Shown piece by piece: positions 3,143-64,000 of a stretch of 64,000 bases of DNA. Source of the DNA: a virus. Its lineage: Duplodnaviria > Caudoviricetes. The first letter of the stretch is position 1; each line of letters opens with the position of its first letter. The stretch lies in the IMG/VR virus record IMGVR_UViG_3300002835_000006. One strand, 5' to 3'. The position numbers and the translations under genes were made by a program. The notes beneath the pieces were generated by a model that was not told the origin of the DNA, searched no databases, and worked only from the letters and a program-made list of their open reading frames with translations.

Positions 3143-3583
3143 ATGGGAAAAATTATAAGATTGACGGAATCGGATTTAGTAAAGTTGGTACAAAGAGTAA
3201 TATCTGAACAAACAAAACCAGCAGCACAAAAAACCTCACCAACTAATAGTTTATATGATGGGTTTACTAAATTACCTAAATCTATTCGTATCAAGGCTGA
3301 TATGGGGGTTGCGGCTCCAATGATGATTGACATTACACATAAATGGAGTGGTTCCTTCGGATGTGAGTTCATCGGAGTTATGAGAGGAACTACTGCTTTG
3401 TATTTCAAATTTGCATTTGATTGTAATAAACAAACATTGGTTATAAATGAATCATATAGTAGAGATATTCCTAGAGGACAGAGAGTGAAGATTTCGTCTG
3501 AAGCATTGAATTTATTGATTGATTCATGTGGTTGTGATAAATATGTAAAAAATAGTTCGCAATCGACCACTGATTTTGTATAA
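3143..3583 (+). CDS. leader-bearing protein (KIIRLTESDL type), Cys-pair family
   Basis: MGKIIRLTESDLVKLVQRVISEQ; FKFAFDCNK; CGCDKY. Confidence 0.8.
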   Translation: MGKIIRLTESDLVKLVQRVISEQTKPAAQKTSPTNSLYDGFTKLPKSIRIKADMGVAAPMMIDITHKWSGSFGCEFIGVMRGTTALYFKFAFDCNKQTLVINESYSRDIPRGQRVKISSEALNLLIDSCGCDKYVKNSSQSTTDFV

Positions 3584-3606
3584 GACATTTAACTAAAATA
3601 AAAAAC

Positions 3607-3636
3607 AACCCTCTTCCATTACGAAGGGGGTTTTTT
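3607..3636 (+). terminator. intrinsic terminator
   Basis: AACCCTCTTC-loop-GAAGGGGGTT followed by T-run. Confidence 0.7.
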
Positions 3637-3657
3637 GTTTTGTGTCTATTTATAATC

Positions 3658-60239: not shown

Positions 60240-62338
60240 CACGTAAAGATAAATTAGTAATAACTGAGCTCAAAAGAATCCAAGAAATAATGGGGGTAGA
60301 AAATAATTTACCTATACTTTTAGAACAGCCCAAACCGTTACTTACCGCTTTAAAAAGTATTTTTACCAACGCGGAGCCTTTGGAAAAGGGTGCAATATAT
60401 CAGCTTACACATAATGGTAAACCGTTAAAAAAATTGGCGAATGCTGAATTTCAAGAATTGAAAAGTTTGGTTTCCAAACCAAATTTCAGATTTGCCGACA
60501 TTACAGATGATGGTTTAAGATTGACTCTGAAACAAATAGTACAAAGTAATGAAGAATTACAAGCGTTAGCAGAAAAAACGATTCAAGATATAGCAAAAAG
60601 TCAGGGGAAGACTGTTTCACAATTGATGAAAGAATTCGCACAAGACTATATCGACACTAACGCAGAAAATTACACTCCCGAAGAATGGATTAAAAATAAA
60701 TTATCTACTCTTACAGTTCCTGATGGTACTGCTAGTGGTGGTCGTCGTCCTTTGAATATAGATGACGGCTCTATTGAGTTGATTGAAAATTATTTAGTAC
60801 AACAGTTGAAAAAGTATGTACCTGAAATAGAAGTGGCTGGTAGAAAAATTAGTGCCGCTTCAAACTCATGGTGGACAACAGGAACGGGTGCACAACTCAA
60901 ATCGCTTGGTAATGCCCTGTTACCATATTATTTCAAAAACCTTTGGTATAAATTTGTACCATGGGCAACAGAAATATTACCAAATAAATTGTTAAAAAAA
61001 TGGAAAATAGAAGTTCCTAGTATTGTAGACGACCTTGAAGGTCAAGTTGCTGAAATTATGAGGAAGCAACAAACCTTAGACCCACAAGGAGAGGAAATGA
61101 GTTTTGATGTATTGGAAAATTTGGACAATATGTGGGCAATAATATCACGAGGACGAAAGAGCATGATGGAACAACAATATAAACAAATGATTCAAGATTG
61201 GTTTGTAACGAATTCAGCAATTCCAAAGAAAGAATTGGAGGTATTTTTAAACAACCCGGGAGTTAAAAAGGTCTTGGAGACACCGCCAGAATATTTGACA
61301 AAAAAAATGGATTATATTTTCATGACTTATCTCAAGGCTCATGTGAAAAAAATTCCAGCTGTTGGTGCAACCCTACAAGCGATTAAAAATGCTAAAGCTC
61401 GAGGTGGAATTATGAAATCTTTTAAAGAACAAGATTTCTTTGAATTCATTCCTAGATTAAAAAATGAAATTCTCTATAAAACTCCCCTCACCAAAGCCGA
61501 AATGATGGAATTAGGTATGAGGACTACAAAAGCTGGTACAATAATAGAATTTGCCTTCATTTATTTGATTTGGGTCCCTGTAGTAGAAAATTTGATAAAA
61601 AACTATTTTGCAACAATTTATCAAAACTATTTTGTTATAGATGATTTTAACAAAGAATTAGAAAGATACAGGCAATTGTGTAAGGTCGGTCTCATAGAAG
61701 AGAATGGTAAACCTATCCCACCCTCAGAATGTAACAAAAGATTTGCGGAAATAAAAAGAACAACATGGGATGGTATGATTGAAAATGTAAAAGCTAATTA
61801 TCCTTTTAGAGCTTACATTAGGGACGTAAAAGAAGGTTTTGGAGAGGGTATACCAGAAGGGTTGTGGAACCTTTTATTAAATCCGGCCACAAGGATTGAT
61901 GAGTTATACAGTGCACTTAAAAAGTCTGTAAGTGAAGGGGAAAGTGTTATTCCATTTGAGCGTTGGAAAGATGAGGCATTGGAACCTTTCGAGCCCATAA
62001 GAGAGGATATGGAAAAACAACTTAGAAGTCTAGGTTTACCGGTGGACAATGAAAAAGAATTAGATGCTGCAACGGCCGAACTAATTAGAAAACAGGAAAA
62101 AGAAAATCCTGAGCTCAGATATATGTCAGGAAACCTTAAAGAAAATTTAGTAGATTTTAAAAAGTTTCTAACAACTCCACCTAATACTATGACAATGTCT
62201 TCTTTGACTAATGCTGCGGAAATGACAGATAATGTTGGAAAATATTATTTAATCGATAAAACAAAACCGGTCGATATTTACGACAACCCTAAATTCAGAT
62301 TTTTTGAAGGAACGTTTACACAAGATTATGCAAACTAA
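60236..62338 (+). CDS. large helical leader-bearing protein with TM-like segment
   Basis: ELKRIQEIMG leader, LLEQ site; IIEFAFIYLIWVPVV. Confidence 0.8.
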   Translation: MTRKDKLVITELKRIQEIMGVENNLPILLEQPKPLLTALKSIFTNAEPLEKGAIYQLTHNGKPLKKLANAEFQELKSLVSKPNFRFADITDDGLRLTLKQIVQSNEELQALAEKTIQDIAKSQGKTVSQLMKEFAQDYIDTNAENYTPEEWIKNKLSTLTVPDGTASGGRRPLNIDDGSIELIENYLVQQLKKYVPEIEVAGRKISAASNSWWTTGTGAQLKSLGNALLPYYFKNLWYKFVPWATEILPNKLLKKWKIEVPSIVDDLEGQVAEIMRKQQTLDPQGEEMSFDVLENLDNMWAIISRGRKSMMEQQYKQMIQDWFVTNSAIPKKELEVFLNNPGVKKVLETPPEYLTKKMDYIFMTYLKAHVKKIPAVGATLQAIKNAKARGGIMKSFKEQDFFEFIPRLKNEILYKTPLTKAEMMELGMRTTKAGTIIEFAFIYLIWVPVVENLIKNYFATIYQNYFVIDDFNKELERYRQLCKVGLIEENGKPIPPSECNKRFAEIKRTTWDGMIENVKANYPFRAYIRDVKEGFGEGIPEGLWNLLLNPATRIDELYSALKKSVSEGESVIPFERWKDEALEPFEPIREDMEKQLRSLGLPVDNEKELDAATAELIRKQEKENPELRYMSGNLKENLVDFKKFLTTPPNTMTMSSLTNAAEMTDNVGKYYLIDKTKPVDIYDNPKFRFFEGTFTQDYAN

Positions 62339-63659
62339 TATAAAAAAACTAATAGTCGAACAAATAGTTTATCCTCCGTGTGACCCCGTTGACCCTCCTA
62401 CCGATTTCACCGATGAAGAATGGGCAGGGTCAGGAAGACCGCCTGTAAGAAGTGGTTGTGCTCCGTGTAAAAAAGGAACTAAAATCTTCATAAGATGTAA
62501 GGCTTCTGTACAACCACCAATCGACGACAAATATGTAGGTGTGTATGTTAAAAAAGGATTTGGAATTATTCAGGATTTCAAAGTCAAATTCAAACAATTT
62601 AGAAATCAGTTGAAAATGACAATGGGTGGTGGTCAATACGTACTTACCAAATCAACCAACACTGAAGATGTTTTTTGGAATCAAACTTTTGGAATCGATG
62701 TTACTTTTGATTTTACTGAGGACCCACCTCAAGCTATTATAAATTTATCTACACCGAACGCTAGTGTTCTTACAACTTTGGAAGGTGCAAACGTAGTTCG
62801 TCTTATGGCACCACCTCCAGTCGGTCAAGGTAGTGAAATAACTGTTACAAAAACTGATGAATCCGTCAACCCTGCAGCAGAGGACTCCGCAGTTTGGAAT
62901 TGTGTGAAAACCGCTCTTGATAATTCGGGTGCAATAATGATGGGAACAAGTCTAAAAGGTGATTATAAATATTTTCCTGTAGATACCATTTATGAGGGTG
63001 AAGAAACTGATTTTTATTTGTACAAGAACTATAAAGCTGAATGGAAGACTTCAGATTCCATGAAAACAATAAAAACAGGTAAATGGGAATGTACTGAAAA
63101 TAATAAAGGATTTAAAATTACATGGGATGATGGTAAAGTTGAAAAATTTCCTGTTAGGGCTCGAATATCTGGTGATGAAAATGAAGATAATAATCAAGAT
63201 GATGGTTCAGACGGAGGAGAAAATCAATCAAAGATAAAAAATTGTCGTTCGTTTGTAACTGAACCAAATGAGAAAGATATTTTGAGTGGAAGAAAACAAA
63301 TAAAAAAATGTATGAAAGGTCCGATTATTGCAAGTATACAAAAAATGCCTGTATTTCAATCATACCTTTTTGATGTGCTAAGAGGAAATAAACAACCTGA
63401 AGTTACCGATGAATTTTTCGGACCTTATATGGAAAAGGCAATCAAAATTTATCAAAGTACAAACGGATTATATTCGTTAAACAGAACTTTAAGTGGTACC
63501 ATAGATAAAAAAACATATGAACTTCTTTTATCACAAAATAAAAATAGACCAGGACCTGAACCTGAACCACCGAAGCCCGCACCTAAACCTGAACCTAAAC
63601 CTGCTCCAGCGCCAGAACCTCCAAAACCAAAATTTGCTGACGAAAAAACAAAATTTTAA
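62328..63659 (+). CDS. leader-bearing protein with peptidoglycan-binding-like domain and Pro-rich tail
   Basis: IKKLIVEQ; D.FFGPYMEKAIKIYQ..NGL....G.ID..T; PEPKPAP repeats; ends FADEKTKF. Confidence 0.75.
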   Translation: MQTNIKKLIVEQIVYPPCDPVDPPTDFTDEEWAGSGRPPVRSGCAPCKKGTKIFIRCKASVQPPIDDKYVGVYVKKGFGIIQDFKVKFKQFRNQLKMTMGGGQYVLTKSTNTEDVFWNQTFGIDVTFDFTEDPPQAIINLSTPNASVLTTLEGANVVRLMAPPPVGQGSEITVTKTDESVNPAAEDSAVWNCVKTALDNSGAIMMGTSLKGDYKYFPVDTIYEGEETDFYLYKNYKAEWKTSDSMKTIKTGKWECTENNKGFKITWDDGKVEKFPVRARISGDENEDNNQDDGSDGGENQSKIKNCRSFVTEPNEKDILSGRKQIKKCMKGPIIASIQKMPVFQSYLFDVLRGNKQPEVTDEFFGPYMEKAIKIYQSTNGLYSLNRTLSGTIDKKTYELLLSQNKNRPGPEPEPPKPAPKPEPKPAPAPEPPKPKFADEKTKF

Positions 63660-63661
63660 TT

Positions 63662-64000
63662 ATGAAACGTAGAATTATACAAGAACAAGACGAGAAACAA
63701 ACCAAAAAAACAAATTTAACAAGAGCGATTGAGTTAGGTTGTTTTGATAGATTGGGTATAACAATAAATCCAGAAACACCACAAGAAAAAGACGGTAACG
63801 TTATTTTATTTGCTAAAGGGAATGAGTCTCAAGCGGATTTTCAAGTGACTTTTGAACCTGACGTGAACCAAAAAGATGCTAAAGGATTACAACAATTAGG
63901 AAAAATAGTTAAAACTTTAGACCCCAAAGAATTTAACATTTGGACTTGTAGACCTTTACAAACTGAGTTATCGAAAAAACCCGAAGAAAAAAAAGAACCC
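63662..64000 (+). CDS. partial ORF running off the window
   Basis: MKRRIIQEQ..., open to the window end. Confidence 0.65.
   Translation, partial: MKRRIIQEQDEKQTKKTNLTRAIELGCFDRLGITINPETPQEKDGNVILFAKGNESQADFQVTFEPDVNQKDAKGLQQLGKIVKTLDPKEFNIWTCRPLQTELSKKPEEKKEP

Follow-up and report, generated by a model that had tools for sequence, protein, structure and literature searches.

The 64,000-nucleotide stretch of DNA analysed here (the window), from the tailed-phage record IMGVR_UViG_3300002835_000006 (Duplodnaviria; Caudoviricetes), encodes many proteins that start with a short, related N-terminal peptide. We refer to this peptide as the leader and to the remainder of each protein as its cargo. 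About 27–30 of the 103 genes in the window were found to bear one of five related leaders; the leader observation made in a preliminary description of this DNA is confirmed and extended. The window is syntenic with a related IMG/VR record (G005; 321,283 bp with terminal repeats, rated complete), with amino-acid identities of 40–93%, and this genome is used for comparison throughout.

Leader-bearing genes in the window

On translation, all 30 start sites listed in the preliminary description gave the N-termini reported there, and the 18 open reading frames (ORFs) said to have MKYIITESQL-like starts (type 1) were borne out, against 0.15 expected by chance from Markov shuffles. A weight matrix built from these 18 starts and used for a six-frame scan of the window returned the same 18 and one weak internal site (34403, plus strand); with a threshold of 16 bits, 0.15 sites were found in Markov-shuffled sequence. 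The scan is in part circular, as the matrix was built from the starts that it recovers. Independently of the matrix, the 22 N-terminal residues of each of the 103 called genes were compared without supervision or a model. One cluster of 26 genes resulted, which joins the MKYIITESQL, KIIRLTESDL (type 2) and SEEEK types; the IRRILxE and EIMG types formed small clusters. The Sec signal peptides came out as a separate cluster of nine, which serves as a positive control for a known address tag. Explicit motifs placed a leader on 27 of the 103 genes, with about three probable false positives and a few real leaders missed.

A first hydrophobic-hydrophobic-(T/S)-E element, at residues 4–11, is common to nearly all of the leader helices. 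In many leaders a second hydrophobic-x-E(Q) site is found at residues 13–30, followed by a flexible linker and then by the cargo. The window leaders are amphipathic and charged, and the hydrophobic core of Sec/Tat-type signals (about 10–15 residues after a basic N-region) was not found in them.

The 18 type-1 genes lie between 3658 and 50362 (here and below, genes are on the plus strand unless stated, the number gives the position of the Glu and an arrow marks the predicted cut). The first five are at 3658–3972 (MNYIINEEQL, 104 residues, with a TATTTAT box ending 4 nucleotides 5′ of the ATG), 4580–4951 (MKYIISESKL, 123 residues), 5270–6595 (MKYIISKEQH..IME15↓G, 441 residues), 6592–6954 (MKYSISQRRL, 120 residues, without a TATTTAT box) and 6957–7295 (MRYLISETRI, 112 residues). 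Four consecutive genes follow at 10270–10533 (MKYIVTEPQL, 87 residues, with the extended element GGGGTCGGACTATTTAT 5′ of the gene), 10570–10965 (MKYIISENQY..LLE15↓G, 131 residues, with a DGHHR motif and no significant Pfam match), 10989–11315 (MKYVITESQY..LKE15↓S, 108 residues, with a very acidic cargo) and 11338–11643 (MKYIITERQL, 101 residues). Beyond these are the genes at 13041–13298 (MKILITETQK, 85 residues), 13336–13842 (MRYIITESQLKRIIE15↓Q, 168 residues), 13866–14504 (MKYFITESQLKVLLE15↓QNPSVNSNQ, 212 residues), 14527–14784 (MEYILTETQLLSIIE15↓N, 85 residues) and 15307–15657 (MKYIITEEQLKSLSE15↓Q, 116 residues, acidic), and a degenerate member at 15667–16401 (MKFYISDYQY..LTE15↓I, 244 residues). 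The remaining three are 18409–19434 on the minus strand (MKFRLTESQFEFLFE15↓N, 341 residues from the ATG at 19434), 25252–25536, which has one extra residue (MKSIIITESQLVKLLE16↓T, 94 residues), and 49742–50362 on the minus strand (MDFVITENQFRRLVLE16↓T, 206 residues).

The two type-2 genes are at 3143–3583 (MGKIIRLTESDLVKLVQRVISEQ, 146 residues, no Pfam family, predicted sites LTE9 and ISE22↓Q) and at 7986–8576 (MSKIIRLTESDLIKLVKRVISEQ↓SGGNP), where the leader is fused to a DUF4468 domain. A 255-residue ORF on the opposite strand (2821–3588, minus) overlaps the first of them. It appears to be spurious, and the plus-strand genes real, because its only conserved part matches the antisense of a G005 gene.

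The SEEEK-type leaders are found at 4020–4505 (MKHLLNNLTEEEKNLIRQQH ... ILNEQ48, 161 residues), 22645–23130 (MKSTFFVSEEEKMRILEMH..TIVE27↓Q, 161 residues) and 27422–27913 (MSKRFIVSEQEKNKIRKLY, 163 residues, 73% identical to its G005 orthologue), and the same type of N-terminus at 52635–54362 (..VSNEEKENILSKH ... VSNEQ, 575 residues, with weak zinc-ribbon matches). IRRILxE-type leaders open the genes at 7302–7757 on the minus strand (MRSTIRRILRE11↓M, 151 residues), 9403–10215 (MRQLIRNIIRE11↓H, 270 residues, no Pfam family) and 21024–22604 (GTG start, MILRETIRRILLE13↓D, 526 residues); a weak IRLLIE-type N-terminus at 19753–20583 (MSLLKSNIRLLIE13↓T, 276 residues), which has no box and falls outside the N-terminal cluster, is a doubtful member. 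The EIMG type is represented at 60236–62338 (MTRKDKLVITELKRIQEIMGVENNLPILLE30↓QPKP, 700 residues) and at 44833–45936 (GTG start, ..EIEKIKIVMGISE18↓A), where it starts an extension of about 128 residues in front of a PPK2 domain (E = 6e-71).

As a whole, the window has a GC content of about 33%, many small plus-strand ORFs and Sec signal peptides in the Bacteroidota style, and it also encodes a lysin with PG_binding_1 and GH19 domains, PPK2, ThyA and one tRNA-Ser.

Portability of the leaders and selection on the peptide

A degenerate DNA pattern for exact MKYIITESQ was searched in IMG/VR and gave 131 sites in 112 stretches. Complete ORFs of at least 50 codons are opened by 121 of these sites (eight others run off the locus and two are short), and 78 have the TATTTAT box 3–7 nucleotides upstream. 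Sorted by BLAST similarity past residue 20, the 81 distinct proteins form 29 unrelated clusters. Conversely, the orthologues of a single cargo, the DUF4468 protein of 7986, carry three leader types (KIIRLTESDLVRLVKKVI, MKFVITEEEKIEIKKLYGELL and MKFNLSEEEKKSILNQHKLL), all of which meet the cargo at an invariant (I/L)xEQ(S/E)GGNP junction. Because orthologues of one cargo carry different types, we consider this to be direct evidence that the leader types are interchangeable modules, which would recombine onto new cargo. What is shown in this way is portability in nature, as distinct from targeting.

The cargos had also been described as unrelated, and this stands in part. BLAST of residues 21 onward links the paralogous cargos of 4580, 6592 and 6957, pairs 10989 with 15307, and groups 13041 with the C-terminal part of 5270 and with 15667. 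Among the family labels first given to the cargos, DUF4468 (7986) and PPK2 (44833) were confirmed by Pfam, and MORN (21024) rests on a sub-threshold MORN_2 match. The labels ParB, GIY-YIG and GNAT found no Pfam support, even at E values up to 5 on ten leader proteins. The gene set turns over rapidly between relatives: 16 of the 30 window leader genes are without a homologue in the syntenic G005 genome, and for 4020, 7986 and 58497 only the N-terminal leader region has a G005 match. Other searches were negative: PHROGs gave no useful match for ten large window proteins or ten G005 head-region proteins, tblastn of three window proteins against a phage collection gave no match, a related-locus search in IMG/VR with the 13336 protein found no relative, an ESM Atlas look-up of 13866 gave no usable match and a literature string search for MKYIITE found no paper.

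AlphaFold2 models were obtained for two leader proteins. In that of 7986, residues 1–22 form a low-confidence helix (predicted local distance difference test score of 45–49) and a confident DUF4468 domain starts at about residue 29; in that of 13336, a helix at residues 7–16 precedes about 45 disordered residues, after which comes a helical domain. Since the models separate the low-confidence leader helices from the cargo domains, the leaders behave as detached tags.

The TATTTAT box ends only 4–6 nucleotides 5′ of the ATG in most of the leader genes, and an explanation at the nucleotide level therefore had to be tested. At identical leader residues, 406 synonymous codon differences were observed, compared with 418.7 expected from the codon usage of the genome (a ratio of 0.97), and Leu10 is encoded by CTT, CTC, CTA and TTA. 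The leaders of 3143 and 7986, for which 20 identical residues of 23 had been claimed, are identical at 20 of 24 positions in protein; as claimed, they differ at many synonymous sites, with different codons at 12 of the 20 identical residues and 51 of 72 nucleotides identical. Since codon choice in the leader matches genome usage, and in view of the synonymous changes between 3143 and 7986, selection acts on the peptide and not on the DNA.

Head machinery, predicted cleavage sites and promoter box

The head module of G005 is of the T4 type. It comprises a portal gp20 (Portal_T4, E = 3.5e-76), a prohead protease gp21 (Peptidase_S77, E = 1e-21), a major capsid protein (MCP) gp23 (E = 4e-71), a T4-type terminase and a scaffold-like protein of 525 residues with a long acidic tract. 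Two type-2 leader genes (102702–103268 and 100272–100742) adjoin the MCP gene. The gp21 protease family PF03420 was detected in 11 of 15 leader-bearing records, including all five of those that are at least 90% complete. By MCP, the nearest cultured phages are Flavobacterium phage vB_FspM_immuto (hereafter immuto), Microcystis phage Mel-JY01 and Rhodothermus phage RM378. In immuto, protein 187 (MW353176, 111631–112095) starts with MKKQILSEQFRRMQKLAGIITESQFNEE, in which an RxQKLAG motif, like that of the EIMG/ELMG leaders, is joined to IITESQ; with both motifs in one peptide, this is a hint of a single, longer ancestor behind the leader classes.

The lineage is one of freshwater jumbo phages of about 300 kb, the hosts of which are probably Bacteroidota. 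DNA of the phage itself is present in 19 lake-water metagenome runs. The freshwater ‘moraphages’ have genomes of 200–307 kb, predicted Flavobacteriia hosts and T4-like core genes including the prohead protease; the leaders are not mentioned in the paper describing them (PMC12619734). They may be the group to which the window belongs. The two ends of G005 (1–4800 and 320137–321225) are filled with repetitive ORFs (MFHLSLMNLMFHL..., VEHQVHLV...), which look like short tandem repeats inside or beside the terminal repeats.

The predicted sites in the leaders follow a pattern: IITE↓S or RLTE↓S at residues 4–9, followed at residues 13–22 by IIE↓Q, LLE↓Q, LSE↓Q or VISE↓Q. In 15 of the 18 type-1 leaders E7 is preceded by I/L/V-x. 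Residues E7, Q9, E15 and Q16 are invariant in the 13336 family (eight orthologues), as are E9, E22 and Q23 across the orthologues of 7986; in both families the residues next to the Glu positions vary. The [ILVM]xEQ motif is enriched in the first 45 residues 3.0-fold in the window and 4.3-fold in G005.

Comparable sites are found in the head proteins. In the G005 protease, ILIE aligns with LLIE of T4 gp21 and both the His and the Ser motif are retained; in the G005 scaffold-like protein, SLSEQ immediately precedes the acidic region. The predicted maturation sites of the MCP have the form (I/V)-x-E↓A, being HLINE↓A in G005 and QIVSE↓A in immuto, about 20 residues before a conserved PxVRRVF block; T4 gp23 has FLTE↓A, with its established cut position (LTE↓A), at the equivalent place. 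In the T4 record NC_000866 the N-termini read MNEPQLLIE for gp21, MLKEQLIAEA for gp22, MAKINELLRES for gp24, MEGLIEA for gp67 and MKTYQEFIAE for ipII and ipIII. Near its C-terminus T4 gp21 also reads ...PKEITESQTAE..., with the same ITE↓SQ string as the leaders; the C-terminal part of T4 gp21 is thought to be removed on activation, and the resemblance may be coincidence or shared self-cleavage logic. The T4 internal proteins have propeptides of 10–19 residues, which direct them to the core and which gp21 then cuts off (PMC9026906 section 2.6), and LIE-9 of T4 gp21 is named as fitting the cleavage logo (PMC9026906). When the G005 protease was co-folded with residues 1–36 of a leader protein from the same genome, the score was 0.00; this gives no verdict and speaks neither for nor against binding.

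The box in front of the leader genes has the consensus (A/G)TATTTAT(A/T) and lacks any −35 information, a −10-only architecture that is also that of T4 late promoters. An example is the box at 10248–10264 (plus strand) in its extended form GGGGTCGGACTATTTAT, which ends 5 nucleotides before the ATG. In the window, a box within 33 nucleotides precedes 23 of 27 leader genes, compared with 20 of 76 other genes (odds ratio 16, p = 1e-7). In G005 it precedes 26 of 34 leader genes, compared with 77 of 368 others (p = 9e-11); leaders in G005 were called by explicit motifs, as single-linkage N-terminal clustering of its 402 genes chained into a meaningless cluster of 189. The G005 box is found 5′ of protease, portal, sheath, tube, head-completion, structural and lysin genes, and no box was found before the G005 genes for DnaB, UvsX, exonuclease, ThyA or primase. 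The distance from box to ATG in G005 is bimodal, being 4–6 nucleotides in 51 genes and 12–17 nucleotides in about 30. The former class would give leaderless or near-leaderless mRNAs, which would be unusual as a systematic design in a Bacteroidota phage. One freshwater metatranscriptome run yielded a few short contigs over the region, which show neither transcription starts nor timing.

Several observations were made alongside. The extended element GGGGTCGKRMTATTTAT lies 5′ of four consecutive leader genes (10248–10264, 10548–10564, 10967–10983 and 11316–11332, all on the plus strand), with four matches compared with 0.09 expected, and a further shared CATCTCAGA is found about 10 nucleotides upstream in three of the four. 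Leader genes in G005 (206721 and 207754) and elsewhere in IMG/VR are preceded by the same extended element, which might be bound by a regulator or mark a joint at which cassettes are shuffled by recombination. A weak gp55-like candidate for a late sigma factor is encoded in G005 at 93769–94515 (plus strand), just upstream of a structural block, and has no PHROGs support. Finally, the G005 gene at 201732–202196 (minus strand), a homologue of the annotated endo-beta-N-acetylglucosaminidase of immuto, carries an EIMG-type leader (MNLYEDITRIKEIMG) and a box 4 nucleotides upstream. Its product is a candidate head-packaged cell-wall hydrolase.

Interpretation and comparison with known systems

With moderate confidence, we lean towards the view that the leaders are T4-like capsid-targeting sequences (CTSs), that is, prohead propeptides processed by a gp21-type protease, which have expanded in number and diversified in form. 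The leader genes would be transcribed late from the −10-only TATTTAT promoter, many of them as leaderless or near-leaderless mRNAs. The leader would dock the protein onto the scaffolding core during prohead assembly, the protease would then cut after the Glu residues and free the cargo within the head, and the cargo would exit with the DNA at infection. The head-loading system proposed in the preliminary description is partly supported: every indirect test run, whether on the protease, the Glu sites, selection on the peptide, portability or the promoter, favours the T4 analogy.

A number of points weigh against this interpretation. The protease and the head module are seen in the relatives only, and immuto has the same head module but no MKYIITESQ at its ORF starts in a scan of its genome; the gp21 protease alone therefore does not imply a leader system. 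No significant sequence similarity was found between the leaders and the T4 CTS MKTYQEFIAE, only the MK...hydrophobic-x-E pattern being shared, and hydrophobic-x-Glu is a common tripeptide (2.8 per 100 residues in the N-termini versus about 2.0 elsewhere). Acidic cargo parts (isoelectric point below 5.5) make up 13 of 30, unlike the basic internal proteins of T4. In the 4580/6592/6957 family the leader continues straight into a conserved helix, without a linker or second site, and may belong to the fold. As for timing, late transcription from the TATTTAT box is inferred from gene content only, and a search of G005 for T4 gp55, gp45 and gp44 (BLAST and phmmer) returned only the weak gp55 candidate mentioned above (E = 1.7e-4 within the proteome).

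We may wonder whether the leader is a portable docking tag with a destination other than the prohead, such as a degron for an AAA+ protease of the host or the phage, a chaperone handle, or a host-hub-binding or localization peptide. Leaders that are portable, stand apart from the cargo fold and are under selection as peptides would be compatible with any tag function, many of the cargos are small and acidic, as is typical of host-takeover or anti-defence factors, and the leader start (M, a basic residue and three hydrophobic residues) recalls N-motif 2 of ClpX. We nevertheless judge such a tag to be unlikely, though it is the most serious of the alternatives, and we are equally doubtful that hydrophobic-x-Glu is a by-product of an amphipathic helix, as it would then have to be. 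A tag of that kind would account neither for the Glu residues, whose invariant positions agree with the predicted sites of the MCP and the protease, nor for the T4-type protease that strictly accompanies the leaders in complete genomes. It would also leave unexplained why leader genes are linked to the promoter class found at head, tail and lysis genes and why some of them stand beside the MCP gene.

Quite improbable, in our opinion, is a single old, fast-diverging paralogous family in which the N-terminal helix is simply the best-conserved structural piece and has no addressing function. Several cargo groups are indeed detectably paralogous, the extended upstream element common to four consecutive genes suggests tandem duplication, and the continuity of leader and helix in 4580/6592/6957 is what such a family would give. 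Yet the same leader stands on DUF4468 (elsewhere a bacterial family), on PPK2-type and on other unrelated cargo, including the 29 BLAST-unrelated IMG/VR clusters, while orthologues of one cargo carry different leader types and the AlphaFold2 models put the leader outside the folded domain. There is very little to be said for a recognition sequence for a modifying enzyme, as in ribosomally synthesized and post-translationally modified peptides with a radical-SAM maturase: the Radical_SAM domain (PF04055) was not found in five complete or near-complete relatives (14 of 14 control genomes were positive), and no conserved enzyme gene lies beside the leader genes in the loci examined. Conservation at the nucleotide level, with the first codons being part of the promoter, the initially transcribed region or the initiation signal of leaderless mRNAs, can practically be discarded: the mostly 4–6-nucleotide distance from box to ATG would place the mRNA start at or beside the start codon, but this is contradicted by the codon test (ratio of 0.97, four Leu10 codons), by the 51 G005 genes with this spacing, about two thirds of which have unrelated N-termini (head-completion-like and structural-protein homologues among them), and by the leaders behind spacers of 12–33 nucleotides or without any box.

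Returning to the view that the leaders are CTS-like propeptides, a more speculative extension, which we would not expect to hold, is that the five classes are an addressing code rather than one redundant tag. Leader class, together with the one-site or two-site layout, might then determine in how many copies the more than 30 cargo proteins are loaded, where in the prohead core they lie or in what order they are released, improbable as this seems at present. Were it true, this would be the largest sequence-predictable set of injected proteins known, including PPK2 and (in a relative) a peptidoglycan hydrolase, and readable from metagenomes.

If the leaders do address proteins to the head, injected proteins become predictable from sequence alone for an abundant lake-phage lineage that has no cultured member. 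Each genome would list at least 30 candidate first-minute effectors, such as enzymes for anti-defence, host takeover or action on the cell wall, mostly from unknown families, and the product of 44833 would be a polyphosphate kinase predicted to be packaged. The short portable tags could serve as trial loading signals for foreign cargo, as the T4 CTS did. The analysis also defines a −10-only TATTTAT promoter class, from which many genes of a Bacteroidota phage would be transcribed into leaderless or near-leaderless mRNAs.

The concept is not new in kind: it is established for T4 and the T-even phages, the diverse internal proteins of which have only the CTS as a common feature (PMC3012670, PMC9026906), and the T4 CTS is sufficient for the loading of foreign cargo (PMC9026906, PMC3012670). 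The leaders resemble the CTS of T4 IPI, IPII, IPIII and Alt, which is removed by gp21, in being short, hydrophobic-rich N-terminal peptides that start with MK, end in (I/L)-x-E and stand on unrelated cargos, and the gp20/gp21/gp22/gp23 head module is shared, being seen here in the relatives. The differences lie in number (about 30 genes per 64 kb here compared with three to four per genome in T4) and in form (five leader classes, with many leaders of 15–30 residues that have two predicted sites). Many cargos here are acidic, whereas those of T4 are basic, and two T4 copies are identical in DNA, whereas the leaders here have drifted at synonymous sites. In the T-even internal-protein loci, too, the gene sets vary and turn over rapidly, the leader being their one conserved part; the present system differs in its larger scale, several leader classes, Bacteroidota hosts, spread over about 60 kb and a promoter box for each gene.

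In phiKZ-type phages, P3 of the cleavage motif is a small residue (S/A/G-x-E), and the long propeptides are not known to form a conserved, shared tag. Here, proteins do share a tag, and both the leaders and the predicted MCP site have a hydrophobic P3 (I, L, V or M), as T4 does. What the two have in common is that both are jumbo phages with cutting after Glu by a gp21-related protease (predicted here): in phiKZ, 201phi2-1 and SPN3US, dozens of head proteins are processed in this way by gp175/gp245, and the propeptides sometimes have redundant sites (PMC9026906 section 3.2; PMC5694885). Finally, the cargo-loading peptides of encapsulins are also short and portable and send unrelated enzymes inside an HK97-fold shell, as is predicted here for the leaders. 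Encapsulin peptides, however, are usually C-terminal and uncleaved, and they bind the shell protein directly, with neither a protease nor a scaffold.

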